64,000 nt of DNA from positions 40,172,191 through 40,236,190 of the forward strand of contig NC_081378.1 in the NCBI RefSeq assembly GCF_030684315.1. The letters are read 5' to 3'. The DNA comes from Stegostoma tigrinum. Taxonomy: Eukaryota. The notes beneath the pieces are model-generated. The model saw only the letters and a program-made list of their open reading frames with translations. It ran no database searches and was not told where the DNA came from. The number at the start of each line of letters is the position of its first letter. Position 1 is the stretch's first letter. Below are positions 24,290 to 58,243 of this stretch, in pieces. A program made the position numbers and the translations under genes.

Positions 24290-24473
24290 AACCAGAAGCA
24301 AAACCAATCAGGCAGCTGCAGTCCTGACCAGTAGCTTCATGGCTTCTGGGCATCAGAGGAGCAGGAAAACTGACGTTTTGGGTTGAGACATTTGTGAAGA
24401 AGGGTCTAGGCCTGAAATGTCAGCCTTCCTGCTCCTCTGATGTTGCTTGGCCTGCTGTGTTCATCCAGCTCTA
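24290..24473. mobile_element. Palindromic Penelope pseudo-LTR pair (family A-like), decayed
   Basis: GCATCAGAGGAGCAGGAAAACTGACGTTT is mirrored by AAATGTCAGCCTTCCTGCTCCTCTGATGT. Confidence 0.65.
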
Positions 24474-29529: not shown

Positions 29530-29645
29530 AACCAGTTCTGAGGAAGGGTCACCAGACCAAAATAGTTAACTCTGATTTTCCTTCACAGATGCTGCCAGAC
29601 CTCCTGAGTTTTTCTATCAACCTCGTTTTTTTTTGGGGGTTTATT
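29530..29645 (+). mobile_element. Penelope family B pseudo-LTR fragment
   Basis: AGTTCTGAGGAAGGGTCACCAGACCAAAATAGTTAACT..CACAGATGCTGCCAGACCT (decayed hammerhead plus tail). Confidence 0.7.
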
Positions 29646-30179: not shown

Positions 30180-32580
30180 TGTAGTTTGATTGAAATTTAA
30201 TTTGTATCTGAAATAACTCCAGAGCTCAGTGTCCTGTTACCAAGTCACCCTTTATTTACATGTAGAGAGCCCTTGACACTGGTCCAGCTTCCTCCAAGCC
30301 AGTTCTGAGTGCCAGGGATGTCTGACCCTCCTGTTTGTATTTGTCAGGTAGGGCTCCCTGCTTGGATCACCTTAACAGCCCCAATCAGGGAATTCACTCT
30401 GTGAGGGCCACTTGATTGTAACAGGGTCAATTACAACATCCATTCTCAACAACCACAACCACCCCACCACCACCCTCCCCTCACTTCCTCTCCCTGAGTC
30501 TGACAACAAAGGCTGGTTCATTTTCTTGTAGCTTCTCCTGGGGCATCTTAGCACTGGGTCAGGTTCCCCCAACTCTGGCTCAGATACAGGTGGTGTGTAA
30601 TGCACAGTAGAGGCAGTGATATCTACCATGTCCATCCCAGATTCTGAGATGGAGATGGAGAGGGAGAACTCATTAGTTCTGCGAGCCTCACCGATTTGTT
30701 CTGAGGATTCGGGCATGTTTTGCTCCTGACCTGTTTTGTGAATTTGCAGCTATTATGTAGTCCAAGTGGTTGTTCAAGATCATTTTACCAGTCGTAACTT
30801 TATATGTCACGAGACCTGACCTCATGTCGATGATGCCCCTTACCCATGCAGGGCCGTTCCTGTAGTTCTTAGACCAAACTTTGTTCCCTGAAGGAAACTG
30901 CCTCTACTGCTTAGTGAAGTCTTGTGTCTGGCATTGACATTCCTGATGCTGTTTCACCCTTCCCCTCCCCAGGTCCAGGAAAATCCGATTTAACCTGGAG
31001 CAGAGTCTTCTCCATTTGTGCAACTCTGCTGGAGCTATCCCTGGATTTGAACAAGGGGTGGTCCTGTAATCGAATAGGAACCAGGACAGTTGAATGTCTA
31101 GTGAAGCTGTAGGCTGAAAGCCTGCCTTCAAAGTTTGGACTGCTCTTTCTGCCAAACTATTGGGTGGTGGATAGTATGGACCTGTCTTATATGTTGAATA
31201 TCTTTCAACTTTAGGAAATGCTCCAATTCCCTGCTGGTAAACAATGGCCCGTTATCTGTGACCAACAACTCTGTGAGTCTATGAAATGCAAAATTTGCAC
31301 ACACTTTTTCTATTGTTGTCCCTGTGTTTTACAAATGAGCACTATGCACATCCAGTATGAGTCGGCACCCACAATGACTAAGAACATTGAGCCCATGAAA
31401 GGGCCTGCATAGTTGACATGTAACTGAGTCCAGGGTTTACCTGGTTATTCCAATGAATGTGGGGGAGTTGCTGGCAGTAATTTTTATCAATTGTTGGCAC
31501 TAACTTTTATCGTTGACCCTAGCTTTTATCATGGTTGGCACTCTGGGCACTGCACCACCAAAGCTGCTATGCCTGTATCTGGTCCTGGCCACTAGACATG
31601 ACTTCTCACGAATATCTTAATTTTGGAAACCCTGGAATGATCCTGGTGGAGTTCAGCCAGTGGTCATCTTTGCTCAGGACAATCACTCTTGCTCCCCATG
31701 ACAATATGCCATCCTCTACTATGACCTGGTCTCTCTGGGTCCAAAATGGTTCCAATTCCAGTTGTGCTAGTCCTTTGGTTTCCCCCATCACCACCAGCTG
31801 TTTCAGTTTTGCTGGGACTGAATCTTTTTGTGTCCACAGACCAATTATTTTCAGCAGTAACCAGAAGCGTGTCGAGAATATTTAAAGCTATTACAGACTC
31901 TTCCAATGATAGTACCACCAATGGTGTGTTTGTCAGCGGGAGGTGACTCAAGGCATCCGCATTTGCTACTTGGCCTCTTGGATGGTGTTGCAGCTTGTAC
32001 TTGTACACAGTATCAGAGCCCAGTGCTGAATTGAGCCTGAAGCTATGGGTGGCACTGCTTTATTCTCTTTAATTAGAATGAGCAGGGATTTGTAGTCTGT
32101 TTTCAATTACATATGTAGACCTAGAGATAACAAAGGAGCCATAGCAAAAATCAACACGTCTTCTCCTTCTCAGCTTTTCGTTATATTAGAGTTCTTTATC
32201 ATCATGGTGGAGATCGCTGTAGCAGTTGTCGGCTTCTGGCCACATGAGCACAACTCGAGCCTCAGTGAATCCCAAAGGTATGGACTCTAGTGAATTGAGT
32301 GTTGAGACCCAACATGCAAGAACAAAGCTTGCTTTACTCCATTATTTTACAAATTTACATTCGTAAAGGCATTGGTGGAACTTCCTGACTTCGCATATGA
32401 CCGCCAAAGTTTCCTTCTCAAACTGGACATATTTACAATCTGCATTCACCAAAGTCCTGAACGCGTAAGCTATTGGGCCATTCATGAGCTAATACTATCC
32501 CGACACCATGGGGGGAGGCATCGCATGTCAATATGACATCTCACTAAGGATCATACTGTACCCATCCCACCCAGACTTGT
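30180..32580 (-). mobile_element. Decayed Ty3/Gypsy LTR retrotransposon: RNase H/integrase relics, PPT and 3' LTR (30180-30438)
   Basis: Minus-strand ORFs YKYKLQHHPRGQVANADALSHLPL, EDGILSWGARVIV, AERAVQTLK..FLFDYRTTP..GIAPAEL; LTR bounded TGT..ACA with an adjacent purine tract on the minus strand (about 30450-30495). Confidence 0.85.
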
Positions 32581-35129
32581 CTAAACTTTGAGAAAAGTAC
32601 TCTGTGTCTCTCAGTGTGTCTCTCAGTCCAGACAACCACTTAAGTTGCATCCACCATTTTCAGCTTTTTCAGTGCTGTATTAAAAATTAAGTTTTATTGT
32701 AAGTTAAAAATATCCATTGTTTCTCAGGGCTCTGAAACAAGGACAAGGACAAAAACTGTTGTTTTGTTTTTGCTGACTGTGGAAGCTTTCCATGTGAAAA
32801 TTGTTTGTCATGTTTACAGTTGACCTGGTCCAAAACTATGTGGATTTAATAAGATGTAATTCTTTCCAACTGTCTGACTACAGTATTAAGTTGAATGCCC
32901 ATTAGCTAATTATTTTATTTCCAATTCTTGACCTTTTACTTTAATATGTTACTTTGAGAATTTTACTTTTTTTATTCAAAACAAAGTATTTTTGTCAGAT
33001 AAAATGACCAAGTCATTTCATGAATGGTGTAAATTTATTTTACAGGATTGAAACTAATCAGTAAGAAATGAAATTTCAATCATGTCTTCCCTAACATCTT
33101 GCCACTTAAAACATGCTTGTTAATAGCTATGAACATTTTTAATGTGTATAATTTACCAGCATTTGGCATTTGTAATTTTAATTCAACATTGAAAAGCCTG
33201 CATTTACGAAATTGAACTTGCTAAACAACAAAAACACAACTATTGCCAACGAGTCCTCAAAAATTAAGAGGTACAGAATGACGTGAGCAAGTATTCTCCT
33301 TTTGGTCATTGTCATTCATCTGTTAGTGAAGAGCACAAGCATTACCAAGGCCAGACAACCTATTTTTAAAACAATGTTGATTTGAAAGGATAGGTCTAAA
33401 ACTAAAGACTAAAGTTTTCCCATATAGTTGAAAATTGGCACTTCTGCCAAAGAACTTTATGTAATGGGAGTTCATACTAAAAATCCAGGTTCTGAGATCA
33501 GTTATTGGCTGTCCATTTGATTGTGCATTTGTTGAATTGTATGGATTTTGTAGAATGTTAATCAGGTGCATGGATCTCCATCCTGAATTCCAAATCTGTG
33601 ATCACTCTGGAGACATTAATTAATAAGATTTATTTTTAAGAGATGGTACAAAATAAATGAAAATTAAATACAGGTAATTAAAACTAATGGGCAGCTGAGC
33701 ATTCGTTTCTATGTCTCATACTTTCTATGATTCCTGAATTTCAGGTACCGTGAACAAGGGAGTCCACAAATCCAAGATCCACAGCGCTGGTCAATAGTTT
33801 CACCCTGGACTGATAAGAGGAGTCCTTATTTGAAGATTAGTTAAACACCAAAAGCATTTGTTATCAGGTAATACACAAGAGCAAAAGGAATTGATGCTTT
33901 AAAAGTTAGATATGTGTTACTGGGAAGTTCCTGGAATGATGGTTTGCACTGATGCAAAATTACTGAGAACCAGTGCTCTCCGAAACTCATTCTCTCCTGA
34001 GACTGACTTTAGCACGTACTTGAGACAAGCAGTTTCACTACTGAGGAAGGGAAATTAGACTTGCTCAGATGATCAGGCAAACTATGTGCCATAAGTACAA
34101 TACAGTTGTAAAAGTTGCTGTCAGAAATATCTTCCATCAGTTTTATTCTTGCTGTCCCTTCTCTACTTCTGAGGTGGTTGTCTGACGCACTTTTCAGAAT
34201 TCATACTGTGGATTTAGGAAACGCTGTTGGCGTCTCAGTTCTTCAGCTGCCTGGACAGTCTGTTCAAAACTGCATGGACTTTAGTTGATAATGTGATCAA
34301 CAATAATAAAGTAGACATATAGACATGAGAGTATTGATGGGGATAGGGATGAGGATTAGAGTAAGCAATGCCCCAAGTTTCAAGTACCAATAATGCAGGT
34401 ACGTTTGGGGCCTCTGGACTGTTGACTGGATTTTCTGATAAGTGGAGAGTTGCCAAGAACAAGAGGGAAAATGTAGTGAGCTTGGCATCAGGGGATGAAT
34501 TTTACATTTTTAATAATGATGCCTCTGCTTTAGCAACCAAATGTATTTGCTACATGTGAAAGAGAGTTGTTCGAGTGGTCAAGTCACATCATTGAGAGGA
34601 ATGGTACCACATTTTTAGATGAGGGCAATATGGTTGACATTGTTCACTCGAATTTTTGTGAGATATTTAGCAAAACTTTTCACTTGAGGACAGTTGTGGA
34701 AATGGAGAGAATAATTCATTCGTGAAAAACAAAAAAGTTGTAAGAAAAAAATCCAACCATTTGATCTGTGTTGTTAAAAATAGAGGATGCAACGTAATGC
34801 TAAGATAATCCACAGATGTAAAATACAACCGAACCCAATTGGCCTGAATAGCCTTTGCACAATTGAACATTTTTCATTTTTCTTGTCTAAAAGTACAACA
34901 TTCCATTCCATGTGTTGGCTCAGTCAAACATGACCTGATGACAGGAAATATTTCCATTGTCATGAAAAAACAATGCAGTATTTAATTTTCATTTTTTTTC
35001 AGAAAGCAATATACTTCATCTGCTGCACTGACAGCTAAGCACAAGAATCTGCTCAAAAAAAGGAAAACGTATCACACGGATACAAACAAAATACACTCTG
35101 TGACACCCAAAAACAAACCTCCTGCTTTC

Positions 35130-35313
35130 GGCAGAAGGTGTAATTAGATGGCTGACAGCACATCACTGAGGAAACTATCAGGCCCAGCAATACAGTGCAC
35201 ATCATTAGAATAAGACACGCTATTCCTGTTTTATGAAGAGGTAATTAACACATTCTGAGACTGTGTTATGTGACTGAGGATATTACTGGTGCACAATACA
35301 GGACAAAAGGAAC
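35130..35313. promoter_or_regulatory. Candidate conserved non-coding element, copy 1
   Basis: 173/184 identical to 47863-48046 with no indels while the flanks are highly diverged; has TAATTA x2, TGACAG and TATC motifs; no shared long ORF. Confidence 0.6.
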
Positions 35314-35624
35314 CGCTTTTCTGAAAATACTCTATACAACTAAGCCTGTATGTTGATGCCAGAAATTCAATTCCTATTTTCAAATGTACATTTGCTATAT
35401 TCATTCTTACAGAAACTTGTTGTGAAATTGTTTTGTGTGATATTTATTGGAAAAAAGCTTGATACAAAAGTGTGACAATTTAATGGAAGGTGTAGTCAAA
35501 TCGATGGATTAATATCCCAGCCGAACTCTTGTACAAGTGAATTTCATACAGGCCAAGATAATGTTTTAACTCCACAGATTACAGTTAGCTGAGGACAGGG
35601 AAAGTATACAGTTCCATTAGAAAA

Positions 35625-36195
35625 AGGAAAGAATTTGCAGAACCTCAGGATATCTCAAAGCATTTTGCAGCCAATGAAGTACGTTATGTGTTGTAACTAT
35701 GTTATTGTGCGATATCGGGCAGCCAATTTACACACCGCGAGATGTCGCAAACAGTATTGAAACAACAACCACATTCATTTGTTTTAAGTGATGGTGATTG
35801 AGGGACAAATATTGGACAGAAGAATGCACCTGCTCATCTTTGATATAGTGCCATTTGTTGCATCGGTGCCTCCAGGAAGATTTTTGTTTACCATCTCAGC
35901 TGGAAATGAGTACCTCTGACAGCAATTCTTGTGAGTTACTCATTTAGAATTCCCAGCCTCCACCCTGCTGTTATAATTGCCTCTACAAGTTTCTCAGTTC
36001 TGAAGAAGTCATTACTGGACTTAAAAGTGTTAACCGTTTCTCTCTTCAATGATGCTCACAGTTTCTCCAGCACTTTCTGTTTCTCGTTCAGATTTCCAGC
36101 ATCTATAGAATTTTGCTTTCATTTAAGTGGAAGCTATTATTATGTTCTCAAGACTTGAGTGGTACTTGAACTCATGACCTCCTAACTTAGAACCC
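35625..36195 (-). mobile_element. SacSINE1/LF-SINE-like tRNA SINE, interrupted by a PLE pseudo-LTR (about 35990-36125)
   Basis: Body CTCAAAGCATTTTGCAGCCAATGAAGTAC..GGCAGCCAATTTACACAC..ACCTCTGACAG; reversed B-box GTACTTGAACTC near 36165. Confidence 0.5.
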
Positions 36196-36437
36196 ATGAC
36201 CAATTTTACAATGACAGTGGATCTGGATCATTTCCAGAGTGCATGAAACGCTGTAAGTGTAAAAATCACAGTAGGAATGCATGCTTGATACAAATGGATT
36301 AGAGAAGCCAATGTTGGGACAATATTTTCAGATGACTAGAGCAGTAGAGGATTCAGGGTATTGTTGTGAAAAGACAGAGGGAACAGGTATTAAGAAGTAC
36401 GTCATTAGACAGTGTAAGCAAAGCCTGGAATAGGTTA

Positions 36438-37045
36438 AGATAACAAAGTGTGGAGCTGGATGAACACAGCAGGCCAAGCAGCATCTCAGGAGCACAAAAG
36501 CTGACATTTTGGTCCTAGACCCTTCATCAGAGAGGGGGATGGGGAGAGGGTTCTGGAATAAATAGGGAGAGAGGGGGAGGCGGACCGAAGATGGAGAGAA
36601 AAGAAGATAGGTGAAGATGAGAGTATAGGTGGGGAGGTAGGGAGGGGATAGGTCAGTCCAGGGAAGACTGACGGGTCAAGGAGGCGGGATGAGGTTAGTA
36701 GGTAGGACGTGGAGGTGCGGTTTGAGGTGGGAGGAAGGGATAGGTGAGAGGAAGAACTGGTTAGGGAGGCATGGACAGGCTGGGCTGGTGTTGGGATGCA
36801 GTGGGTGGAGAGGACGAGCTGGGCTGGTTTTGGCATGCAGTGGGGGAAGGGGAGATTTTGAAGCTTGTGAAGTCCACATTGATAACATTGGGCTGCAAGG
36901 TTCACAAACGAAATATGAGTTGCTGTTCCTGCAACCTTCGGGTGGCATCATTGTGGGACTGCCGGAGGCCCATGATGGACATGTCGTCTGAGGAATGGGA
37001 GGGGGAGTGGAAATGGTTCGCAACTGGGAGGTGCAGTTGGCCATG
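36438..37045 (-). mobile_element. Penelope family A 3' fragment
   Basis: Reverse-complement homologue of 23350-23940 (HLPVANHF..DDMSIMGL). Confidence 0.9.
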
Positions 37046-37622
37046 ATGGACGTGGGGACCGTTTTGCAGAAAACGCGACCCCAGCTTGGAATAGGTTGTC
37101 AGGATGTTGGATTTAGTTGAGATTCAACTAAATGCTGAAATTGAATGCAGTAACATTGATGTTCTTCAAGCATATTATCAAAGTTGATTGGAGTTGGCTC
37201 CTGTATGTGCTAAGTCTTGTGAAATCATCAAAGTATATTCATACCTTTGTTGTGCAGCAAGGTTCTTGAAGCTGCTTGCTATGGCTCTCACACTAACCCC
37301 ACAATATTTTGAAACCAGACAAGACAGGCTGGTCTTGTCACTGGATCTTGGCACCATTGCCATCAGTTCTGGTGATACACCTGCCAGTGTTAGATCATGA
37401 ATCAGCCAGATATTTTGGGCCACGAGGGAGATGGTTGAGCTTGAATTAAGAACCAGCCAGGAGACCCAAGGGAGAACTTTTTGAACTCAGGTGACCGGCA
37501 ATGCATTCACATTGTCTACTGCGTCAAGCCTGGAGAATGTGAGACTGCCTTTCCCAGAGAGAATTCTCTCTGCAGTCAGATTGGGCTCTGGCTTTGGAAT
37601 AAGATGGTAACTTGGAGTACTC

Positions 37623-37869
37623 TGTAGAGCCCTGGTTGCCCTGCTTTTGGAAGAGAAATAACTCCACAGAGGCTGGTATCCCATCACTAAGTCACCTTTT
37701 ATTTACACAGTATGGGACTCTGACCATCAGTACCTGGAGTGAGGAAAATCCATGAATCTCTTAATTATATATGGCATCCAGGGCTCCCTGATTAGACCAG
37801 GTTAATAGCCCCAATTAGGGAACTCATTTCAGTGAGATCCATCTGGTCATCCTCATTCCAATCATAACA
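37623..37869 (-). mobile_element. Solo LTR related to the Gypsy LTR at 30180-30438
   Basis: Shares TGTAG start, GAAATAACTCC, AAGTCACC.TTTATTTACA, GGGCTCCCTG, GCCCCAAT.AGGGAA and an AACA end. Confidence 0.75.
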
Positions 37870-38365
37870 GGAATGATATTATCACATTGGAGAGGGTTCA
37901 GAAAAAGATTTACCAGGATGTTGCCAGGAATGGAACAATTGAGTTAGGCCAAATAGGCTGGGACTTTGATCACTGGATCACAGGAAATTGAGGCACGACC
38001 TTATGGAGGTTTATAAAATCATGAGGGGCATAGATAATGTGACTAGCAAAAAAATCTTTCCCTAATACAGGGAAGTTGAAAACTAGAGGGCATATTTTTA
38101 AGGTGAGAGGAGAAAAATTTAAAGACATGATGGGTAACTTAGTTTACACAGAGAGTGGTTCATATGTGGAATGAACTGCCAGAGGAAGCAATGAATGTTG
38201 TCCAATTAATGTGTAAAAGCCATTTGGATAAGCATATGAAAAGGAATGGTTTGGAGGGATATGAGTTAAATGCAGGTAAGTGGGACTAGTTTAGTTTGGG
38301 AACGTGGTCGGCATGGACTCGTTAGACTGAAGGGTCTGTTTCCATGCTATATGACTCTGACACTA
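37870..38365 (+). mobile_element. CR1 LINE 3' fragment
   Basis: LERVQKK..TRMLPG, EVYKIMRGID; tail GGGTCTGTTTCCATGCTATATGACTCT. Confidence 0.88.
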
Positions 38366-38639
38366 TCACTGCAAGATGGAAAGTGTTACAATAATACAAA
38401 TGTTGTCATGTTGATATACCATCTAGAAATTTGATGCGTTTAAAGTAAGAGTTTTGAATTTTGTTGCTATCCACGGGGTTAGTGTGCTGGGAATGAAGCT
38501 TCGCTGTTACTGGCAATGTCTTAAACAGTAAAGATTTTAAAAGAAACATTCAAAATCCCCAAGCTCCTGAATCTTCAGACCCAGACAGAAAGCATGGATC
38601 GGGTTTCTGCACTTGAAAAGAATCACAATGTAGCTCTTT

Positions 38640-38745
38640 CTTTTCTAATCAACCTGTTCAGAGATGTTATAACACAACTCTGGAGTAGGGGAAACGTGAA
38701 ACCGGGGCTCCTGGCTCAGAATTAGGGCCACTTCCCCAGCACCAT
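38640..38745 (-). mobile_element. Very short tRNA-derived SINE-like repeat (also near 1545-1620 and 25270-25352, + strand)
   Basis: Shared tail TCTGAACAGGTTGATTAGAAAA; B-box-like GGTTCAAGTCC in the 25298 copy. Confidence 0.5.
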
Positions 38746-38954
38746 CAGACCCCTTAAGGATCTTACAAATAATAAGATTTGAGCCACTGGTAAACAATTA
38801 AACTCAATTGTGAATACTCTTCTAGTTAAAACTCTAAACCTCTTATAAACACTGCTTTGCGCACGTGCAAATACATACACATACAGGCACATAAACAGGT
38901 ATAAGCAGGATAAGAAAGCACTTGGGTGAAGGGAAAACGGGGCTAACTTCATCA

Positions 38955-39995
38955 CAAAAACGGAAATTGCTGGAAAAACTCAGCAGATTCAGCAGCATCT
39001 GTGAAGAGAAAACAAAATCAATGCTTTGGGTCCAGTGACCCTTCTTCAGGACTGACAGCAGCTAGGAAGAGGTGGTATATTTGCTATAAGGAAGTGGGGG
39101 GGACTGGTTCGAGTGGTGGTAAGGAAGTAAGTGATAGGTGGAGATGGAGCCCAGACAGAGGGAAAGGCAGTTAGGCAGACGATGCAATGGATAACTGTAA
39201 GCCAGGAAGAATAAAAAGTTGATCATGGGGACCATTTGCTGATAAAAATAGGCCCTTTCCTTCCAGGATACCCTGGTATCCTCCTTCTCATGCAGTCGCA
39301 GAAGGCGTAACTTCTGCTTGTTTGCTTTCTCCTTCCTCACTATCCAAAGGTCAAACATACCACCCGGGATGAAGTAGCAATTTGCCTGTACCTCGCTGCC
39401 TCTAACTCTGTCCCTTGACCCGGACTCCTCCTTCTGGTCTTTTAGCTTCACTGGACCTGTTCATTGAGAACTGTCAATGTGGCATCTGTGCCCTTCATTT
39501 CTCTGGTTCCTTCACCCACTCAAACCGATCTCCCATTGAACAGAACACCATGCTCTCAGATCCAGCCTTGACTTTGTCATCAAGCCTGCTAACGCGGGGG
39601 CGATGCTGGCATTGTCTGGCAGACTGACTACCACATTGTGAAGGCTGAGGGCCAGGTCTCAAACACCACGTCCTAACATCCCCGGACCATGACCCTACTA
39701 TCAATCACCTTGGCTATTGTGTCCACAATGGTCATTCATCTCCATTTCATCTGGGAATCTTCCCACTATGAAGAACCTCCAAGGTTATATTCCCCAACCA
39801 CATACAGAGCAATTCTACCTTCTTCTGAAATCCACAAACAGGACTGCACTGCACCAGCAAGTAAATTGTCTCAGCCCCACAGACTTTACTTCTTCCTTTC
39901 TTGTCTCAATGTTTTCCTCTCCTCGTTGAGTCCCTTCCCACTTATATCTGCGATTCTTCTGATGCTTTACATCAGTTTCAGAATTTCCCATTCAC
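38955..39995. mobile_element. Older Penelope family B remnant with internal inversion
   Basis: 38955-39410 is the minus-strand pseudo-LTR/EN end; 39410-39995 is a plus-strand RT relic (IPQPHTEQFYLL.. / EIHKQDC, cf. PQPRTARFYLLPKIHK). Confidence 0.6.
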
Positions 39996-40019
39996 AGCCC
40001 CCAGTTCTTCCTCTTCACA

Positions 40020-40432
40020 CATCAATAGAAGCTCTTAGTATCAGTCTTTGTGTTGTCTGCAAGCTTTTTTTGCACCACATTTTCCCTTTTTTTAATCAAT
40101 CCCTAGGTCCTTCTTTGAATTCTAAACTGCTCCCAATCCTCAAACATTTTATTTTTCTTGGCCAATCTGTTTGCTTCTTCCTTGGATCAGATACTATCTC
40201 TAATTTCCCTTGTTAGCCATGGATTGGCCCTCTCACCAACATTGCTTTTGTGTCTGACAGGAATAAACAGTTGTTGCAGTACCCTGATATGTTCTTGAGT
40301 GTTTGCCATTGCTGATCCACTGTCATCACTTTAACTAACTCTCCCCAATCTATTAAGGTCAACTGACTCCTCATATCTTCATAGTTTCCTGTATTAAGAT
40401 TCACCATCCTAGTCTCTGAATCAATCAGTCCC
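40020..40432 (-). mobile_element. CR1 ORF2 internal fragment
   Basis: ORF 40213-40434 NLNTGNYEDMRSQLTLIDW..TVDQQWQTLK (CR1 EN-RT linker). Confidence 0.7.
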
Positions 40433-42417
40433 ACTGCTATTCCCCACCAGCCTCCAATAATTTCCCTACAGTCTTGAAAATTGCTTTATTTTCGAGCATA
40501 GTTCTGTTATCATATCTTGCTGCATATGGGCTGGTTGATTGACTATGTATCCACGGTCACAGTTTGTGATTTTAACTTAATCATAACAGTTGGTATGTGG
40601 AGGAATTCATTCTCTGAAAACGTGTGAATGATTATCATAAACAGCATAAAATGTTAAATTGAAGGTTTGTAGGCTTGCTGCTGTATTCCTACTTGTAATA
40701 ACAGCATATACCCATGCACACAAATGTAAACCCAATAATTAGGATAGAGTGGACAAGGCCCATTTCAATGCTTTCCATAATTCACTTCATGTTAATAGTG
40801 TTACTTGAACTTCAAAAAATGTTCAACTTCCCAGCACTTACATTTCTCACCTGCATTGTCCCAACTGGGGTTCATATAGACCACATCCATGACAAGTATG
40901 GGTTACTTGAGAACCTTCTGCTCTGAGCTGATGAGCCGAAGTCTGAGATTCAAGCACTGCAACACAACAGTAAAGGGAAGAGTTACCTGAATGCTGTGTT
41001 TCAGGAGGCAATCAGTCCCCTGAAATTAACTACCTCAATTTCGGTTAGTGATCAAGGACAGGAGGGTGTGACTTTGTGAGGCAGGTAGAGGGATTCAGGA
41101 GGTAATGCTGAAGGAGCCTCAGCCCTTCAGTGTGTCTAACAGATGTGAGATTCTTGATCCCTGTGTAGACGAGAGTGGGGGCTGTAGGGAGGAGAGCAAA
41201 CTAACCATAACACAAGGAGCCATTCAGGAAGGGGAGCAAAAAGAAACGGTACTTGTAATCCAACATTAACAGACACTGCTCTCTGTGGCTGCAATCGAGA
41301 GACATGAAGGCAGTGTTGCCTGTCTGATGCCCAGGTTCAGGATATCTAACGCGAGATGCAGAGGAACTTGGGGTGGGAGGTAAAGATCCAACTGATGTAG
41401 CCCATGTAGGTGCCAACAAAATAGGTAGAAAGAGGAAAAAGGAAAAGGGCTGAAGGAATATGAGCGACTAGGTGCCAAATTAAAAAGCAGAACTAAAGTG
41501 GTAATAATGCATGATTATTTGCCACAAGCAAATGATACAGGGTTAACAGCATTTTAAAATGTCTGGTATCACAGAGAGATGGCTGCGAGGGGATCTGGGC
41601 TGGGAAGTAAACATTCAAGAATTCCTGCCCTGTTGAAAGTACAGACAAATGGGCAGAGGAGGTGGGTTGCCTTGCCAGTAAGAAATGGAAATAAATCAAG
41701 AAGAAGTGTAGAGTCGGAATGCGTAGAATCTGTGTGGGTAGAGTTGTGGAATTGCAAAGGAAAGAAGACCCTGACTGGAGTTATGTAGCAGTGTTCAGGA
41801 AGTGGGAAAGAAAGTAAATCAGGAGATCCAGAACATGAATAAGAAAGGCACTAATGCAATAATCATGGGGGACTTCAACACACAGGTGGATTGGGATCAG
41901 GTTTGTAGCAGATCTCATTAAAAGGCATTTGTACAATGTCTACGAGATGGTTTTTGAGCAGCTTGTGGTAGACCCCATTTGGGAACAGAAAATTCTGGAT
42001 TTGGTGATGTGTAATGAGGCATTTATTCAGGGAGTTTTAGGCGAAGGAACCCTTTGGGGGAAGTGACTATAATATGATAGAATTTTCACCACAGTTTAAC
42101 TGGGAGAAACTGGGTTTAGACATAACATTATTACAATTGAGTGAAGGTATCCACAAAGATATGAGACAGGATCTGGCCAGAGTAGATTTGAAGGGTAACC
42201 TAGTGAGGAAGACAGTGAGGCAGCAATGGTAGGAGTTTCTGGGGATAATTCAGGAGGCAGAGCAGAAATTCATCCCAAGGACAAAGAAGCATACCAGGGG
42301 GATGGTGAGGCAGACATAGCTGAAAACAGATGTCAGGGACAGCAGAAAAGCAAAAGAAAAAGCAGACAACATGATGAAGGTTAGTGGGAAGTCAGAGAAT
42401 TGGGAAGCCTTTACAAA

Positions 42418-42736
42418 GGGTGGCACGGTGGCTCAGTGGTTAGCACTGCAACCTCACAACACCAGGGACCGAGGTTTGATTCTAGCCTTGGGTAACTGTC
42501 TGTTCAGCTTTTGCACACTTTCCCTGTGTCTGCGTGGGTTTCCTCTGGGTGTTCCGGTTTCCTCCCATTGTCCAAAGATGTGCAGACTAGGTGGATTGGC
42601 CATGCTCAATTGCCTGTAGTGTTCAGGGGTGTGTAGGTTATCGTGGGGATGGGTCTGGGTGGGATGCTCCAAGGAGCGGTGTGACTTGTTGAGCCAAAGG
42701 GCCTGTTTCCACACTGTAGGGAATCTATTCTATTCT
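42418..42736 (+). mobile_element. Full-length HE1-type V-SINE inserted in CR1
   Basis: GGGTGGCACGGTGGCTCAGTGGTTAGCACTGC (A-box), GGTTTGATTC (B-box), V-domain, (ATTCT)n tail. Confidence 0.92.
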
Positions 42737-42999
42737 AAAACAGCAAACGATAGCGCAAGAGCAATAAGAGGTGACAACATGAAATATGAAGGTAAAATAG
42801 CTGATAATATAAGATTGCAAGAGTTTATAAGATAAGTAAAAAGTAAGAGAGAGGCAAGAGTGAGCCTTTGACCACTGGAAAATGAGGCTAGAGAAGTAGT
42901 TTTATAACAAAGGAATGGTGGAGAAATTGGATAGGTGTTTTACACTAGACTCCAGAGTGAAAGATACCAGAACTTCTCTCACCCCTACTATCTGGTTGC

Positions 43000-43066
43000 T
43001 TCAGAAGTCACACGACACCAGCTCATAGTCCAACAGGTTTATTTGAAATCACAAACTTTCAAAGCT
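43000..43066 (-). mobile_element. Penelope family D pseudo-LTR fragment inside CR1
   Basis: TCAGAAGTCACACGACACCAG..GTCCAACAGGTTTATTTGAAATCAC, homologous to 22062-22120. Confidence 0.6.
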
Positions 43067-45189
43067 CTGGGTCCCAGAGGACAGGAAAATGGCTAATATA
43101 GTACCTGTTTAAGAAGGGAGGGAGGCAAAAAATGAAAAATTCTCCAGGCTGGTTAGACTGACCTCAATCATTGGTAAGATTTTAGAGTCCATTATTAATG
43201 ATGAGATTACAGACTACTTGGAAGTTTGTGGTATAAGAGGGCTGAGCAGCTCGGCGTAATCCAGGGGAAGTCACGCCTAATAAATCTGACAGAATTCTTT
43301 TGAAGATGTAATGAGCAAGTTAGACAAAGGAGAGCCAGCGGACATGATCTATTTGGATTCCCAGATGGCCTTTAACAAGATTCCACACAGGAGGCTGAGA
43401 AATAATATAAGAACCCACGCTGTTAAGGCAAGGTACTGGCATGGGTATAGGATTAACTGACTGGCAGAAAATAAAGAGTATGGATAAAGGAGTTCTATTC
43501 AGGTTAACAGCTGGTGACTAGTGGAGTTTGATTAGGCTCAGGGTTGGGACCACAACTACTCACGCTACTTATTAACGATCTAGTTGAAGGAACTGAGGGC
43601 ATTGTTGCTAAATTTGCAGATGACACAAAGGTGGATGGACAGGTAGTGTTGATGAGATGGGGAAGCTGCAGAAGGACTTCAACAGGCTAGGAGAGTGGGC
43701 AAAAAAATGGCAGATGGAGTACAATGTGAGAAAGTGTGGGATTATGCACATTAGTGGGAAACGTAGATGGGTAGATTATTTTTTAAATGGGGAAAGATTT
43801 TGGAAATATGAAGCACAAATTGACTTGGTAGTTAGGAAGGCAAATGCAATGTTAGCATTCATTTCAAGAGGGCTAGAATACAAAAGCAGAGATAGTGAAT
43901 TTGCATAAGGCTGTGGCCAGGCTTCATTTGGAATGTTGTGAGCAGTGTTGGGCCCCGTATCTAAGGAAGGAAGTGTTGGCCTTCAAGAGGGTTTAGAGGA
44001 GGTTTATAGGAATAATCCCAGGGATGAAGGGCCCCAGGAGCATGTGAGGACTCCAGGTCTGGGCTCAATGGAGTTTAGGAAGATGACGGGGGATCTGATT
44101 GAAATTTACAGAATACTAAGGGACCTGAACAGGGTGGACGTGGACAAGATGTTTCCACGGATAGGAGAGACTAGGAACCGAAGGGATGGACTCAGAGTAA
44201 AGGGACAACCTTTAAAATGAAATCAAGAAGTATTTCTTCAGCCAGAGAGAGGCAAGTCTGTGGAGGCCAAGTTATTGAATGTCTTGAAGACAGAGATAGA
44301 TAAGCCCTTGATTAGAAAGGGGATCATGGGTTATGGGGTGGGGGAGGTAGGAGTACAGTGTTGGGAAACACATCAGCCATGGTTGAATGACAGAGCCACC
44401 TCACTGGGCTGACTGGCCTAATTCTGCTCCTATATCTTATGGTCTAAATAGTAACAGTTATTCCATCACAAACACAAAGTTGACACATTTTAAATGTTTT
44501 CTTAATGACAATGATTGGATCAAGGGAATGATTATGCTCATCAAAAGCTAATGCTATTTTTGGTTTTAAACTGCATCATTAGCTGAGCTGGTGATGTTCA
44601 CCACTTTGACTCAGAATGCCATGGGGTCAGATGAGACTTTAGGAATTGAGCATATAACTTAAACTATCCTTCAGTGACATACTGAGGGATAAGTGAATTA
44701 TCAATGGTGTCATTTTGTAATGCAACATAAACCAATGACATCCATCTTTATGCTCCACATAGAACATCGTTCTTTCCTCGTATTATGGTCAGGTCTGGCA
44801 CCATAACTGACAAAACCATATTCATGTTCATTCATCAAACGTGCAAAAGATCCTAATGTTACGCTTGCAATTGCTCAGTGCTGACTCCATATGAGGGTTT
44901 CGTGCTGTGAATACCTCTGGAAAATCACACACAGGAACTGGCCATAGCCTTATCTGCTAATTGCAAAATTCCTTACATGTAATTTGGTTGTGTTGTTTTA
45001 AGAATATGACTGACTGCATTTTGAAACTAATGAATTTGTCATGACAAGGCTGGGATGTCCTTTGGGTGTTTTTCCTGTCTAGTTTAAGTATTGCTTTCAG
45101 TTCAAAGCCCCATTAGATAATTTATCAACACAAATCAGAAAAGATTTCCCATGGTGATGTGGGAATGGAGAGTTTGAGATATTAAACTG

Positions 45190-45606
45190 CAAAGACTGGG
45201 ACTTTACTTCAGTGGAGCACAGGGGTTTGGGGTGTGACCTTCACTGAGGTTTATAAAATCATGAGGGAGAGATATAAATAAAGTGAATGACAAGAGTCTT
45301 TTCCCCAGGGTGGGGGATTTCAAAACTAAGGATCGTATATTTAGGGTGAGAGGAGAAAGATTTAAAAAAGGGTATGAGGCAACTTCTTTTACACAGATTC
45401 GTTCTTTTGTGGAATGAGATGCAATAGAATGTGGTGGATGTAGGTACAGTTACAACTTTTAAAATACATTTGAATAAGTTTCTGAATAGGAAAGGTTTGA
45501 AGGGTAATGGGTCAAGCACAGGCAGGTGGGACTAGTTTAGTTTGGGAACATGGTGTGGACCAGTTGGACCAAAGGGTCTGTTTACATGCTGTATGACTTA
45601 ATGACT
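45190..45606 (+). mobile_element. CR1 3' fragment inserted in duplication copy 2
   Basis: EVYKIMR; tail GGGTCTGTTTACATGCTGTATGACT. Confidence 0.85.
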
Positions 45607-47422
45607 GTTTTCACTGTACTTCCAATTTATTATTATTTAACCCAATAACTTTTGTTGAAGAAATTAACCTTTTTCTATTATATTAATAATATAAATAATA
45701 ATATGTAATTTAATAATTTCAAATTAATGCAAGTGAAATAGTCAAGTCATGTACTTCACTATTAGTCTACATTTGGTAAAAAAAATTAAAAGATTGAGCC
45801 TCATAGGAATTCAAATGTCCTTTATGTCTCCACGCTGACATTTTGTTGCCTGAACTTTACTTGTAAATAGCCATCAATGGCTCTGATATGTATAATTTAA
45901 CATCACTTGTATTTCTATAATAAAACTTGCCAGACAGACAGACAAATGAGTATCACCAAACCAAATGATACAGAATAACGTGGAGTGGCGGGGGGGGGGG
46001 GGTGGTTTGGCCATTTTTTTCCCTTACACACTCATCTGTTAATTAGAAACACTCATATGAAGGAGACCAAACATGACTTTTACAATAGCCAGTGAGAGAA
46101 AATGAATGATATCAGTTCTTTTTCCCAATTTGATGAAAATTAGCACACCTGGTACAGAAACCTAATGGAGATTTGGGGGCATAGATCTCCAAGGCCTGAA
46201 TTCTTAGTCTGTGATCATGTTGTGGGATGTTCTACACTGGAGGCACTAACTCAGTGTTTATTTTGCAAGCTATATTCGGAGTGTAAATGTGAACAATCAA
46301 ACAAGTTATTACTTGTACACGAGAAGAAAAAGATTCTACTATTTCATACTTTGTAACTTTTTTGAGTTTCAGGTAGCCCTAATGGTTAGGAAGGGAGAAG
46401 AACTGTGAATTTCAGATGTACAGAACACCATCTCAACCTGGAATAAGAAGGGAAGTTCTTACTGGAGATCATGTTACCACAAAAAAAGCCACTGTCATCA
46501 GGTAATGAAAGTGGATAAAATGACTTGCCACTTCACAACTGGGTTTGCGTTACTGGGAAGTAGAGAAAGATGGATTTCACTCCCATCAAATTAACAAGTT
46601 ACCACGGCCACACTTTCAGCAGAATGACATCTCACATACTTTCAAATATTATCACTGTTCCAGAAGAGAGGTTTGACTATATTATCAGGCAAACAAGCCA
46701 CGAACTTTAAGGGTACTACAGTTGTGAAAGTCTTTGCCAGGGAAATCTTCCATTTTGCTTTCACTCTGCATATGTAATATCCACACGTTTGAGGGTGTTT
46801 GAGTGTTGAAATACTCCACAGAGAAGATATTATGGATATTATATTGCTGGACAAGAGTGCACCTTCAGCCATGTCTGAAACGTAACCCTTTATTACAGCA
46901 ACGATTCCAAATATGTGTTTTGTCCAGCTCAGGGGAGTTGTTTGGCTGTGCCAGTCAGATTCATAAGGGTAACTTGTGTGCCTGTCTTATATACGCCAAA
47001 AATAGTGGGATTTTCTTAATGATTAAAAAAATTGACAAATATACTTATATTTTGAAAAGCCTTTGGAAAAATACTCCTCATGTAAGGCTCATATGGAACC
47101 TGACAGAACAGTTGACAAATTTGTTAAATGGTTTGCAATCTGCTTTTGCAAAAAAAAAATTGATGATAAATGATAATTGAATGTACATGCAGCAAACTCC
47201 ATTTTCCTGGAAAAACTCTAAAGAATAAAGTAAGCTGAGAACAACATTTTCCTGTTTAGTGCTCTGTAAGATAAGACATCAATAGTTAGTTTCATCCATA
47301 GGCTTCTACACTAACAGTCATGACTTGCGGGTGGAACGGGCTTGATGGGCTGAGAGGACTTTCTCACTCCAGATCTTTTTTTCTGTTCTTATCTAAACAT
47401 AAAGCAATCCATACTGTGTATG

Positions 47423-47650
47423 ATATAACAAGGTGTACAGCTGGATGAACACAGCAGGCCAGGCAGCATCAGAGCAGCAGGAAAGCTAATGTTTCAGGTC
47501 GGGGCACTTCTTCGGAAATGATTTCTGAAGCAGGGCCCAGACCCGAAATGTCAGCTTTCCTGCTCCTCTGATGCTGCCTGGCCTGCTGTATTCATCCAGC
47601 TCTGTACCTGGTTAGCTCAGGCTCCAGCATTGGCAGTTCCTATTATCTCT
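47423..47650. mobile_element. Palindromic Penelope pseudo-LTR pair (family A-like) with 12-bp TSD
   Basis: Arms are near-perfect inverted repeats; flanked by ATACTGTGTATG (47411-47422) and ATACTGCGTATG (47651-47662). Confidence 0.85.
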
Positions 47651-47862
47651 ATACTGCGTATGGGCTTTTTCAGATGTGATCACGTCACAAAAAAGGTAAA
47701 GGTTCCACTGCCATATAAAAAAACTACATGGTTCAGTGTTAAGAAATAACATTATTCTTCATTTACTGCAGCCAAGTGAAAATGTTGCCTAAAAAGTCGG
47801 AAATTTACCACGTGGATCCAAACAAAGCATGTTCTGTGAGATCCAAGGCAAAGCTGCTTTTT

Positions 47863-48046
47863 GGCAGAAGGTGTAATTAGATGGCTGACAGCACATCACT
47901 GAGGAAACTATCAGGCCCAGCAACACGGTGCACACCATCAGAACAAGACACGCTATTCCTGTTTTATGAAGAGGTAATTAACACATTCTGAGACAATGTT
48001 ATGTGACTGCAGGTATTACTGGTGCACAATACAGGACAAAGGGAAC
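47863..48046. promoter_or_regulatory. Candidate conserved non-coding element, copy 2
   Basis: Direct paralogue of 35130-35313, with identical runs of 61 bp and 50 bp. Confidence 0.6.
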
Positions 48047-48589
48047 TACTTTACTGAAAACACTCTTTGCAACTCAATCTGTCAGTTGCTACCAAGAAGT
48101 CAGCACAACAGGACTCTTTGGGAATATGCCCATTTTTCAGAGAGAACTTTTCAAATTTGTTCTTTTTGGACACTTTTATGGAAATACTGAAATCAAGTTT
48201 CTGTACTAATAGAGAACACAATATCGTGGACTGAAGGGCCTGTACTGTGATGTATTGTTCTATGTTCTATTATTAACGCCTGGCTTTTTACATCCACTTA
48301 TGGAAGCTGACAGAGTCCTACTTTAGGGGCAGAAGCTCTGGGTAAAGTCCGATTTGACGGCCACAAAATGTGTGTTGTAACTGAGCCAAAAAAGGTTGAT
48401 CTGTAAATCCTCGTTGGATTTAGTAAATGTAGGAGGGTTTCCTGGTCAGCCAGGACTCTGTGATGGCCAGAGCACACCAGCCCCTTCATGATAAAAGACT
48501 GCATGAGCAAGTTCTTGCCATGAGCAAATTTCATCCTCCTTGTGAGAACTACCATGTAAACATTCAAACCCATCTGCTCAAAAGTCTAG

Positions 48590-48765
48590 AGATGGCAAGA
48601 ACTGTAGATGCTGGAATCAGAGGTAACACAGTGTGGAGCTGGTGGAACACAGCAGGCCAGGAAGCATCAAAGGAGCAGGAAAGTTAACGTTTTGGTTCGG
48701 GAACTTGCCTGCTCTTCTGATTCTGCCTGGCCTGCTGTGTTCTTCCAGCTCGACACTGTGTTTTC
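48590..48765. mobile_element. Palindromic Penelope pseudo-LTR pair, decayed
   Basis: ACACAGTGTGGAGCTGGTGGAACACAGCAGGCCAGG is mirrored by CCTGGCCTGCTGTGTTCTTCCAGCTCGACACTGTGT; TCTAGA on both sides. Confidence 0.7.
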
Positions 48766-50554
48766 TAGATTAGAAATCCAACCTGGGGAAAGCAGTGGGT
48801 TTACACAAAGTCACTGTGACCATTTTCACCTCTCATCGGAAAGGCACTGCCAAAGGGCCCAATTTTAAAACAAGTTGCAGTTGGGTGCATTTGACTGCAC
48901 CTCCCCTGCCTCCATCCCTAAGGCTTCTCCAATTCCACATAAACCCTATGTTGTAATCATGCCCAGTTCTCCTCCCGTGCTGAATGATCCTCTTGACAGG
49001 AATAGCTACTGGTGCCTGGAGCTTAGCACCTGCATCAGTTTAGACCAGCAAGATTCTTCATAGCTGAACGCCAAACCTTTTATGCCATTATCATCTCCTA
49101 TGTACCTTATACCTAGAATCTATTAAGCTTAAATGTTAAAAAAGTAAGTTGTTTGTTTCAGACAAACTCCACAGAATTGGTGGTGGGCGTACCACATTTC
49201 TTAATTGTTATTTAATATCCTTTGGTATTGCCTACTGTCAGCTCATATGCCATTGAACATTTTACTAACAATTTAAACATGGGAAAGGATTACTTTACGC
49301 AGCTGTCGTATGAGGTTCTGCCTGTCTGCATACAGGCTTTCCCTCCCTGATAGTGAAGTTAATGAATGCAAATTAATTCAGTCCTCAGCATGTGACGTAG
49401 GGGAGTATCAGGCAAACCTTGCAGTCAACAGAAATAAATCCCACAAGAGATCAAATTACAAACAATCAGCAAACTTTTGGTATTTAGCCCATATTCACTC
49501 AGCTTTCATTTCAGAAAGAGAATTAACGGAAAGGCACAGGTGACAATTGTCTTCCTGTTTGTAAATATTTTAGTAGTTGTGTATTGCATTTCTAGTTGAG
49601 TCTCCGGAACATAAAAATGGCTTGTATGTCACAGGTCTGACATCTATTTGCACCTTTGTTACAATTGTCTTGCTTAACGAACACAGGCAGCTTGCTTCAA
49701 TTTGATATATTTTCTTTGCAACTATTGTTTTGCAGTGCAGTGTTTTGTCTAGCTCCTGTAATTTTGAATTTTAATATCAGGGAACTTGCAGTTACATACA
49801 TATACACCTTTTTACACCCCTCCCTCCCATAATACTTGCTTGTCAGGCTGGCTTCCTAGCTACGGCATCTCCCACTAGTGATTCCCCAGTCTACCCTTGA
49901 GTCACTACAATAATAAAAACAATGGATTTCCTTTGAGGAAACACAATGGCTGGCAATTTGCAAAATCCGAATTAACCGTCCATCATACTTAATCCCCATG
50001 CTCCAGTAATTTTGTTTTTCCGAATTGGTTATTCATTAATTCAGCTTACCCGCACAACAAAATTCCCTAAAGATATCACCAGCGCTTACAGTTAAAGCAA
50101 ATATGTTCAAAACAAATCTACGCATAGAACGGTAAGGTTTAAAAATAAAGGTACAAGGACTGGTTATAGAATTCCCTCTTTAAAGCAAAAATCACTCAGA
50201 CTTGTGACCTACGAAACATAACCGAGACCCATTTAACATTGTGTTCCACAAGAACATTTAGGAAGCAAATGGTTGTGAGTCAGATATGTCACTTACTCAT
50301 CAGCGTGGAGATTTGTCAAAGTGCATGAAGGATTCTAGACAGCTGTTTGGAAGGAAAAGGACAAAAATCCCTTAGAGGTTGCAAAGGCTTTGTAAGTCTT
50401 ATAAGTGCAATAGATTGCTGTGTGACTAAATAGCAATTTGAAACTGTTTTTGGTATAGAGAGGATGAAACTTCTTCAACTTTATAACATAACTTTCTCTG
50501 TCGTGCATTCCCTTCTGTGCATTTGTCGTTGTCCAATGCACATTTTCTTTTATT

Positions 50555-53760: not shown

Positions 53761-55072
53761 AATGCAATTCTAACAGAATTGTCACTGTGGTGGGCTCCGG
53801 TAGCAGTGAGAGATGACAGAAGTGAATTAGCAGAGAGCATTGACCTATTGATTCGACTTTACAGACCCAAGGCAAGTGGAAGCACCACAGCACCGTCTAT
53901 TGTGGAAATGAAGGCCAGTGGTAAGTATACCACACTGCCACCTACCCACGGAGCTGGATGTTGTTTATGGGAGGTAAATAGATCATGTCAAATTAATTAT
54001 GACAGAAAGGGGTTATGAGTGTGATTAAAAAACATGACAGAAATAGATACAATAATTATGTGCTGCAGGAAGTAACTGCAACATTTGCAGGAAGTCGGTG
54101 TGTACAAGACCTTTAATATATTACAAACAGACCGTCTCCAGCAACGCACCTAGTCAATTGGATGATAGGCTGCTTTGTCATTAGTATGATAGAAGAATAT
54201 TACAGGAAAGAAATACAACAGTTTCAGAGTTTGCACGCTGAACAGAACCTTACAAATGCATACTAGATAAAGTATGAAAGAGAAGAAATTGCAGAAATGC
54301 TTTAACCTGTGAAAGAAATATTGTGGCATTCCAGATATGAAAGTAACAGTGGATTGTCAGCAGAATTCTGTAATGCCCTTCTGGACGCTTCCCAGCCATA
54401 TTGACAATGCTACTTCAGTTTTCACTGCATATTGGAATAATTATGAATATTTGAAAGTTTGCCTTGGCATATCTTTACAATGATACAGATAAATATTAGC
54501 TTAGCATCACAGCTATGCTGGCAGAATCTCTGTTTAGACTGACAAATACTATTGACCATCTGAGCTCAAAATATTAATTTCTCATTTACTTTGTAATTTA
54601 GCATATTTTTGTTTTAAAAAATCCAAGTCCATTTGTTTGGGACGTGAGTCAGATTTCCCTGTTTGAAAGTACAGTGCTATGAATTGTGCTGAATATCTGA
54701 CATCTGATCAGTAAAGTTTCTCTTAAATTCAACTATCCATGAGTTGTAACTGGAGTCCAAATTAAAGCCAAGCTATAAATTTATTCACAAGCCCATCTTT
54801 AATCAATCTTGTCTTGCAGCCTTCCTGAAACATGGAAGGTTAGTATAATTTTTGGAGCTAGTTTCAGAAATTCTGATATTGAACTCACAAATAAATATGA
54901 TGGGAATTGTAAATAATTATGACAGTTGTTGTTGAATATTTTGTTTGGAACTGTTATCGTGGCTACATTTCTTGGCCAAAGATATTGAGGTCGCCAGCGA
55001 GATTTGAGAAGATTTGTAGCTCAGGTTGAGGTTCTGGATGTGAGTTTGCTCGCTTAGCTGGAAGGTTAGTTT

Positions 55073-55112
55073 TCAGACATTTCGTCACCATTCTAGGTAA
55101 CATCATCAGTGA
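55073..55112 (-). ncRNA. Minimal hammerhead ribozyme motif (family C pseudo-LTR)
   Basis: Reverse complement TCA-CTGATGA-T-GTTACC-TAGAAT-GGTGAC-GAAA-TGTC-TGA; 6-bp stem II, 3-bp stem I. Confidence 0.7.
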
Positions 55113-57370: not shown

Positions 57371-57857
57371 AATAAAATGTGAGGCTGGATGAACACAGCA
57401 GGCCAAGCAGCATCTCAGGAGCACAAAAGCTGACGTTTCGGGCCTAGACCCTTCATCAGAGAGGGGGATGGGGGGAGGGAACTGGAATAAATAGGGAGAG
57501 AGGGGGAGGCGGACCGAAGATGGAGAGTAAAGAAGATAGGTGGAGAGGGTGTAGGTGGGGAGGTAGGGAGGGGATAGGTCAGTCCAGGGAAGACGGACAG
57601 GTCAAGGAGGTGGGATGAGGTTAGTAGGTAGCTGGGGGTGCGGCTTGGGGTGGGAGGAAGGGATGGGTGAGAGGAAGAACCGGTTAGGGAGGCAGAGACA
57701 GGTTGGACTGGTTTTGGGATGCAGTGGGTGGGGGGGAAGAGCTGGGCTGGTTGTGTGGTGCAGTGGGGGGAGGGGATGAACTGGGCTGGTTTAGGGATGC
57801 AGTGGGGGAAGGGGAGATTTTGAAACTGGTGAAGTCCACATTGATACCATATGGCTG
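57371..57857 (-). mobile_element. Penelope family A 3' fragment nested in the family C endonuclease region
   Basis: Interrupts ..NVIYKI|PCKNCDKHYIG..; near-identical to the reverse complement of 23490-23940. Confidence 0.93.
57428..57461 (-). ncRNA. Minimal hammerhead ribozyme motif, intact core
   Basis: Reverse complement CT-CTGATGA-AGGGTCTAGGCCC-GAAACGTC-AGCT. Confidence 0.7.
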
Positions 57858-58243
57858 ACCTTGCAAGAACTGTGACAAACACTACATTGGACAAACTGGC
57901 AGAAAGCTAGCCACCAGGATACATGAACATCAACTAGCCACAAAACGACATGACCCACTATCACTCGTATCCTTACACACAGATAAGGAGGGACATCACT
58001 TTGATTGGGACAACACATCCATCCTAGGACAAGCCAAACAGAGAGATGCACGAGAATTCCTAGAAGCATGGCATTCCAACCGGAACTCTATCAACAAACA
58101 TATTGATTTGGAGCCAATCTACCATCCCCTGAGAAAAAGAACAGGAAATGGCATCACCAATGCAGGAAATGACATCACCAACCCAAGGAAACCTAACCAG
58201 ATATATAGAAAGCGGGACATAACACCAGCGCTTCGTCGGAGGC

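Follow-up and report, generated by a model that had tools for sequence, protein, structure and literature searches.

At the Hmx3-Hmx2 locus, the elements uCNE and dCNE are tandem paralogous enhancers, the retention of which is called apparently unique by the authors in the accessible part of their report (10.1101/2020.09.07.281501). Duplicated conserved non-coding elements (duplicated CNEs, or dCNEs) comprise 124 families according to the portion available of a published summary (PMC1896008), and ultraconserved elements are reported, in an extract of another study, to be depleted in segmental duplications (PMC11276968). In multi-exonic enhancer-associated long non-coding RNAs (lncRNAs), exons are described as neutral and splice motifs as constrained, as excerpted from two studies (PMC7035876, PMC8803168). 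Here, we describe a duplicated non-coding unit in a 64,000-nucleotide stretch of Stegostoma tigrinum (assembly GCF_030684315.1, contig NC_081378.1, positions 40,172,191 to 40,236,190; hereafter, the window), each copy of which holds a 185-bp intronic element, termed core 1 and core 2. We consider it reasonably probable, judging from the sequence, that the two cores form a tandem enhancer pair with no coding gene between the copies.

The initial annotation of the window had proposed an old collinear non-coding duplication, visible as islands of similarity. This duplication is real: the listed string pairs all occur in both copies, in the proposed order and with coordinates within 1 base. Local alignments scored against 200 dinucleotide shuffles, a comparison named beforehand as capable of refuting the proposal, are far above the shuffle maxima in the arms, in the region before the core (pre-core) and in the core. 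The scores are 6508 for 32950–33560 versus 45660–46190 (shuffle maximum, 1852), 10046 for 33560–34160 versus 46170–46780 (2041), 4813 for the pre-core (1662) and 15853 for the core (1650). Similarly, nhmmer leads from copy 1 to copy 2 with E-values of 3e-38 for the upstream arm and 3e-64 for the core, and finds no third copy within the window. Identity is 67% over 944 columns of the upstream arm and 64% in the pre-core, with a 57-bp ungapped tail behind the core at 72%. As for the proposed extent of about 2.6–3 kb, the copies do span 2.5 and 3.0 kb, but only about 1.8 kb is alignable. In the middle (about 34141–34800 versus 46756–47330) alignment is not above chance (P 0.36 and 0.47), and a wider middle pair reaches a marginal score of 1956 versus a shuffle maximum of 1783. 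A short homology 5′ of a CR1-like insert in copy 2 (32870–32911 versus 45075–45122) was equalled in 0 of 2000 shuffles in a narrow test, was weaker in a wide test (P 0.02) and was not significant in the 200-shuffle comparison. The copies are now 12.7 kb apart.

The two cores are identical at 173 of 185 positions (93.5%) without gaps, and these 12 differences compare with 33% in the flanks (P 7e-18). In both copies the core is intronic, lying 1.26–1.36 kb behind the respective exon. In a neutral simulation of uniform decay (2500 runs, 670 of which were accepted on observed identity and gap count), no 185-column window exceeded 78% identity, and the core is thus a single large outlier. The islands in the flanks had been read in the initial annotation as an intragenomic phylogenetic footprint of a larger cis-regulatory module. 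This reading is not sustained, because their run lengths and windows are ordinary under uniform decay, which mostly yields such islands: identity runs of at least 11 number 2 (simulated mean 2.45, P 0.74), the longest run is 13 (13.9 in simulation, P 0.65) and the best 30-column window reaches 0.80 (0.85 in simulation, P 0.99). Runs of at least 9 are mildly in excess (11 versus 6.2 simulated, P 0.033), and 2 of these 11 runs correspond to splice sites, one acceptor and one donor, neither of them in the original list of islands. The locus is a cautionary case in that islands of identity within a 65–70% alignment are expected from plain decay, and hence do not amount to a footprint.

A spliced exon within the duplicated unit was overlooked in the non-coding-island picture, and the core is intronic to a plus-strand transcript. 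A search for sequencing runs with core 1 returned 24 runs, 20 of which hold core 1 words, from four organisms: A, which is the window's own, and B, C and D. No core-1-word run among those returned is recorded as RNA, which carries no weight on expression. Contigs from four sequencing runs were aligned to 32800–35500 at an identity of at least 80%, with 10 contig records aligned in all. In run X6 (organism B), depth is about 40 only on 33743–33870 and 4–6 on three other pieces, and the contig breakpoints coincide exactly with GT and AG sites. Record 7 of this run covers 33743–33867 and extends upstream into letters that align with the window as far as 32277, at 26 of 28 positions and with a 2-nt gap, whereas record 8 departs at 33870, with a loose end matching 46376–46405 at 28 of 30 positions. 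These features suggest that run X6 is RNA and that a plus-strand transcript would join exon A to exon B and exon B to its paralog, exon B′, skipping core 1. Evidence for the joins comes from the loose ends of single contigs, all in one run of a related organism, and the partners lie outside 32800–35500. On its 5′ side, exon A is reached by the X6 contig to about 32184, with candidate acceptors before 32174 or 32190; no paralog of exon A was found within the window.

In the window genome all five splice sites of exons A, B and B′ are intact, and each of the three frames of the joined exons is interrupted by stops. The transcript would be an lncRNA, non-coding, or the 5′ untranslated region (UTR) of a distant gene. 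Exons B and B′ share an identical 9-nt stretch at the acceptor and a 10-nt stretch at the donor (chance about 5e-4 at 67%), whereas the exon bodies are 65.5% alike, similar to the introns; between organism B and the window, exon B differs at 10 of 125 positions and the intron at 11 of 137. Both the paralog and the species comparison suggest that the exons evolve near-neutrally, and the paralog comparison that the splice sites are constrained. A coding role was considered for exons B and B′, the lengths of which (123 and 129 nt) are multiples of 3, and was rejected as every frame closes; also against it are the exon A junction with a 2-nt indel in organism B and a stop near the start of exon B′, which is also present in the organism B contig. 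The stop at 33795 in exon B reads as the letter C in organisms B and C, and a second stop follows in the same frame in the window genome. In exon B′ (46416–46501, plus strand), two ATGs that exon B lacks each begin a frame running to the end of the exon without a stop, and about 25 letters of record 8 extend beyond exon B′. Exon A lies within a unique stretch of about 230 bp (about 32110–32345). The surrounding region, 30900–32520 on the minus strand, holds decayed fragments resembling the pol gene of long terminal repeat (LTR) retrotransposons, without Pfam match, which we take to be RNase H and integrase-like. The unique stretch splits the RNase H-like part, which makes it possible that exon A arose after the duplication.

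Comparison among organisms bears on the age of the pair and on whether selection or conversion keeps the cores alike. In flank sequence, organism C differs from the window genome at 146 of 2759 positions, organism B at 21 of 262 and organism D at 63 of 405 (15.6%), giving corrected distances of 0.055, 0.085 and 0.17 substitutions per site, compared with 0.43 between the paralog flanks. If the flanks are neutral, the duplication would be roughly 2.5 times older than the D split (0.43 versus 0.17). Both cores are present in organisms B and C, and core 2 in organism D, which is about 16% diverged. The copy-2-type contigs of organisms B, C and D have in common an insertion after 35276 and loose ends resembling the copy 2 flank. 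Whole-genome contigs of organism C trace one path of long contigs over the stretch and two contigs at the core tail, and the absence of a pile-up there argues against a dispersed family at an identity of at least 80%.

This bears on the possibility that both copies are members of a dispersed transposable-element (TE) family, which the initial annotation had named as a finding that would refute its proposal. The window is repeat-rich, as such a family would suggest, with 22% of it self-repeated. However, two copies occur in the window, with no third, and two in the organism C contigs at an identity of at least 80%, although copies of lower identity would escape; neither copy has an open reading frame (ORF) or Pfam match. 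Membership of a TE family is highly improbable.

Repeated gene conversion might instead have kept the cores alike with little or no selection, in a region that is near-neutral as a whole. Consistent with this, organism C lacks an excess of core words, and the contig graph suggests that its two copies have a common 30-mer (35247–35276) across 35262–35263, where the window copies differ; furthermore, the core has 9 non-shared differences, as many as neutrality predicts since the A–C split (about 5% of 182). Other comparisons speak against it. Over 35221–35369 (149 bases), the copy-2-type contig of organism D differs from copy 1 by 18 substitutions and 2 gaps, and copy 2 of the window itself by 22 substitutions, whereas 29 differences are expected for the organism D contig under neutrality (P 0.009 to 0.03). 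As the organism D contig is no further from copy 1 than is the window's copy 2, the likeness of the cores is not recent homogenization in the window species. Among 27 sampled core 31-mers, organism B holds a fraction of 0.26 (about 7, versus 2 expected neutrally) and organism D 0.11 (about 3, versus 0.14 expected), and the core contig of organism B differs at 7 of 185 positions, compared with 21 of 262 in flank and exon (Fisher P 0.05). In addition, conversion of a 185-bp tract within 65% flanks, 12.7 kb from its partner, would have to have gone on for as long as the flanks took to diverge by about 0.43 substitutions per site. Conversion as the whole explanation, with selection weak or absent, is rather unlikely; the constraint on the core appears to be real but not extreme, and some conversion is possible.

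Words common to both cores include TAATTA, present twice, TGACAG, an ETS-type word with an A-rich flank and SOX-type words. These were found with 14 patterns, uncorrected, chosen after viewing the sequence. One study describes compound FOX:ETS motifs in endothelial enhancers (PMC10952167), and any guess at the tissue here is weak. No reading frame is open across both cores. A metagenome scan with a 21-mer gave 0 matches, and one with a gapped pattern gave 8 chance matches, none of which extends past the pattern. Immunoglobulin recombination signals, microRNA (miRNA) hairpins and recursive splice sites were weighed by eye against consensus and dropped. In run X5, a small library from organism A, a single 156-nt contig (35039–35194, depth 35.5) lies over the 5′ third of core 1, with nothing else across the 2.7 kb compared.

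Alternatively, the transcript might be a host gene in which each core encodes an unannotated intronic RNA, such as one resembling a small nucleolar RNA (snoRNA) or a small Cajal body-specific RNA (scaRNA), expanded by cis-duplication of exon and intron. Near-neutral non-coding exons, preserved splice sites and one conserved paralog in each successive intron resemble the cis-duplication of snoRNAs in the part available of a published account (PMC2653536). In core 1, CTGA occurs four times (shuffle P 0.007, uncorrected) and ANANNA words are present, but the last of the CTGA words is disrupted in copy 2 and no RTGATGA box C was found in the core; C/D boxes, an H/ACA double hairpin and an Rfam match, as hallmarks of snoRNAs, were not found in the cores. 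Rfam gives nothing near the gathering score in the window or in either core, copy 2 having no match at E-values up to 10 and copy 1 chance matches only. Folding of the whole core likewise gives no signal (z −0.85 on the plus and −1.30 on the minus strand), the best local windows reaching z of about −2 in copy 1 only, and compensatory changes are seen at 0 of 51 consensus pairs in the two sequences compared. Moreover, X6 contigs extend beyond the core ends at depth 4–6. An intronic RNA of this kind is fairly unlikely.

The core might also be a conserved, normally skipped cassette exon with regulatory flanks, with a CAG/AAG acceptor at about 35134–35137 and a GAG|GTAATT donor at 35241. Both putative sites are identical in the two copies, and conservation begins at the putative acceptor and reaches about 70 nt beyond the putative donor. 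However, X6 contigs cross both sites unspliced and the main form passes directly from exon B to exon B′; the pyrimidine tract is short and is not conserved between the copies, and no reading frame is kept. This explanation is quite unlikely.

The favoured explanation is a tandem unit of exon and enhancer. An ancient intragenic tandem duplication would have copied the end of an intron, a non-coding exon and an intron with the 185-bp element, within a plus-strand spliced transcript that may be an lncRNA or a long 5′ UTR, and later insertions would have moved the copies 12.7 kb apart. Both cores would be under purifying selection and would function as DNA, forming two enhancers, redundant or additive, that are bound by transcription factors (TAATTA twice for homeodomain proteins, and MEIS-type, ETS-type and SOX-type words), with either a gene outside the window or the host transcript as target. 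Exon bodies would drift, and splice sites would be kept because splicing, rather than RNA sequence, matters. The predicted enhancer role follows from elimination, with no RNA family, fold or frame, and from the shared motif words. The core is probably cis-regulatory, in agreement with the initial annotation.

Several points weigh against this explanation. The case for enhancer activity proceeds by elimination and from motifs picked post hoc, and the window holds no target gene. The splicing evidence consists of loose ends from one run (X6) of another organism, the RNA status of which is deduced. Organism C holds 0.11–0.18 of the sampled core words (3–5 of 27), not above the 5 expected neutrally, and the window's copy 1 has private core changes at 35211 and 35218, suggesting that constraint is perhaps only moderate or relaxing. 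The runs of organisms B and D were found through core words and their contigs only at an identity of at least 80%, which biases the comparison towards apparent conservation; no aligned contig covers the copy 1 core of organism D or the 5′ half of copy 2 of organism C, gaps that are given no weight.

It is possible, although doubtful, that the locus is an lncRNA grown by tandem exon–enhancer modules, in which splicing and enhancer cores are kept while the remainder decays, and a second vertebrate tandem enhancer pair; an intronic RNA family absent from Rfam is a less likely alternative to such modules. If modules of this kind exist here, enhancer dosage or redundancy alone would be able to retain tandem copies where nothing but a non-coding exon was duplicated alongside, and the locus would offer a natural side-by-side test of whether host lncRNA splicing and intronic enhancers are selected jointly. 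No publication on the locus was found by topic searching, the locus having no name to search by.

The features of the duplicated unit and its exons are listed in Table 1.

Table 1. Coordinates of exons, duplicated segments and inserts in the window.
Feature	Position	Strand	Evidence or remarks
Exon A	32184..32277	+	GT donor and 3′ end fixed by run X6 record 7; 5′ limit given is the approximate reach of the contig; not duplicated
Copy 1 5′ arm (intron, exon B, intron)	32870..34140		About 67% identical to copy 2
Exon B	33745..33867	+	123 nt, canonical AG/GT, non-coding; X6 records 7 and 8 end at splice sites
Copy 1 middle	34141..34869		Not alignable to copy 2; holds decayed remnant resembling reverse transcriptase (RT)
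Copy 1 pre-core	34870..35127		About 64% identical to copy 2
Core 1, intronic element	35128..35312		Alignment to core 2; orthologous contigs in organisms B and C
Copy 1 tail	35313..35369		72% identical to copy 2, ungapped; homology stops at its end
Copy 2 5′ arm	45075..46755		Interrupted by CR1-like insert; alignment and nhmmer
CR1-like 3′ fragment	45135..45605	+	Copy 2 only; matches other window copies
Exon B′	46373..46501	+	Paralog of exon B at 65.5% identity, 129 nt; predicted to be spliced directly after exon B
Copy 2 pre-core	47376..47860		Contains Penelope-derived insert
Penelope-derived palindromic insert	47423..47650 (about)		Copy 2 only; target-site duplication 47411–47422 / 47651–47662
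Core 2	47861..48045		173/185 identical to core 1; copy-2-type contigs in organisms B, C and D
Copy 2 tail	48046..48102		Alignment to copy 1 tail

Two inserts in copy 2 had been claimed to be younger than the duplication. The first is CR1-like, occurs in copy 2 only, with an empty site in copy 1, and postdates the duplication, but begins near 45135 rather than at 45190; its assignment to the CR1 family is our assumption. For the second, the 12-bp target-site duplication (one mismatch) and the empty site in copy 1 bear out that the Penelope-derived insert is younger than the duplication; a longer member of its family has a weak GIY-YIG match (E 5.8e-4, below cut-off). Copy 1 in turn contains a decayed RT-like remnant near 34615–34690 (E 5e-4 against another RT fragment of the window), presumably CR1-like, and run X9 has a short CR1-like contig on 34614–34648. 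One Penelope-related terminal repeat occurs about eleven times, at 16473, 23850, 24350, 27690, 30045, 36437, 47423, 48600, 57365, 60978 and 63430, and some of its copies form short self-inverted units (24351–24442, 47426–47614 and 48625–48762) resembling miniature inverted-repeat transposable elements; such units give rise to spurious miRNA-like Rfam scores.

The window as a whole is about 42% G+C, CpG-poor and rich in repeats, the types of which resemble those of sharks. The Pfam scan covered 115 of 142 stop-to-stop frames of at least 75 amino acids, the other 27 of which sit in retroelement-derived stretches; the 115 frames gave two RVT_1 matches, a sub-threshold GIY-YIG match and a sub-threshold SPA match, and nothing else. 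Apart from those of TEs, the number of Pfam families scoring above cut-off was 0, and the window thus shows no evident host protein gene; the Pfam and ORF scan found no coding gene between the copies or elsewhere in it, although short exons would escape in both cases. Just 3′ of copy 1, 35640–35900 is an old relic resembling a short interspersed element (SINE), which we take to resemble Deu-domain SINEs. A unique motif-dense stretch at 49350–49650, 1.3 kb beyond copy 2, contains several TAAT words and, at 49407, a third ATCAGGCAAAC; the stretch has no paralog within the window and could be another conserved element. Nested young Penelope-like elements with RVT_1 matches lie in long inverted repeats at 55035–58321 (arms 55499–56235 / 57369–56636, 95% identical), and a second small palindromic repeat family occurs at 17674–17846, 29533–29630 and 38954–39055. 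Decayed ORF fragments of a non-LTR retroelement, without Pfam match and presumably Rex1-like, are located at 59170–60510 (plus strand).

Compared with known systems, the transcript resembles enhancer-associated lncRNAs, as excerpted above, in that exons appear to evolve neutrally and splice sites to be constrained; those lncRNAs start at their enhancer, whereas here the elements are intronic, the exon itself is duplicated and the contigs have no start site. Similarly to gas5-like snoRNA hosts in the available part of their description (PMC2653536), consecutive introns of a spliced, non-coding transcript each hold a conserved paralogous element, but those hosts carry snoRNAs, and here no snoRNA family, box C or stable fold was found in the cores. 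Like duplicated CNEs, several of which act as enhancers according to the portion available of the summary (PMC1896008), the cores are paralogous non-coding elements that appear constrained long after duplication. Duplicated CNEs adjoin paralogous developmental genes elsewhere in the genome, whereas this pair lies 12.7 kb apart in what would be one transcription unit; as no paralogous coding genes were found beside it, the pair would function in the manner of a tandem dCNE without counting as a classical one. The closest likeness is to the Hmx uCNE/dCNE pair. Each Hmx element is longer than 1 kb and has a core of about 500 bp, compared with 185 bp here; the Hmx elements were duplicated with a homeobox gene that lies between them, whereas here a non-coding exon was co-duplicated and no coding gene was detected in between. 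The Hmx pair predates the jawed/jawless split and has reporter activity, and the present pair is known as sequence in four related organisms. In common, both loci have paralogous, here apparently conserved, non-coding elements in tandem that derive from one duplication, were both kept and share a highly conserved core.

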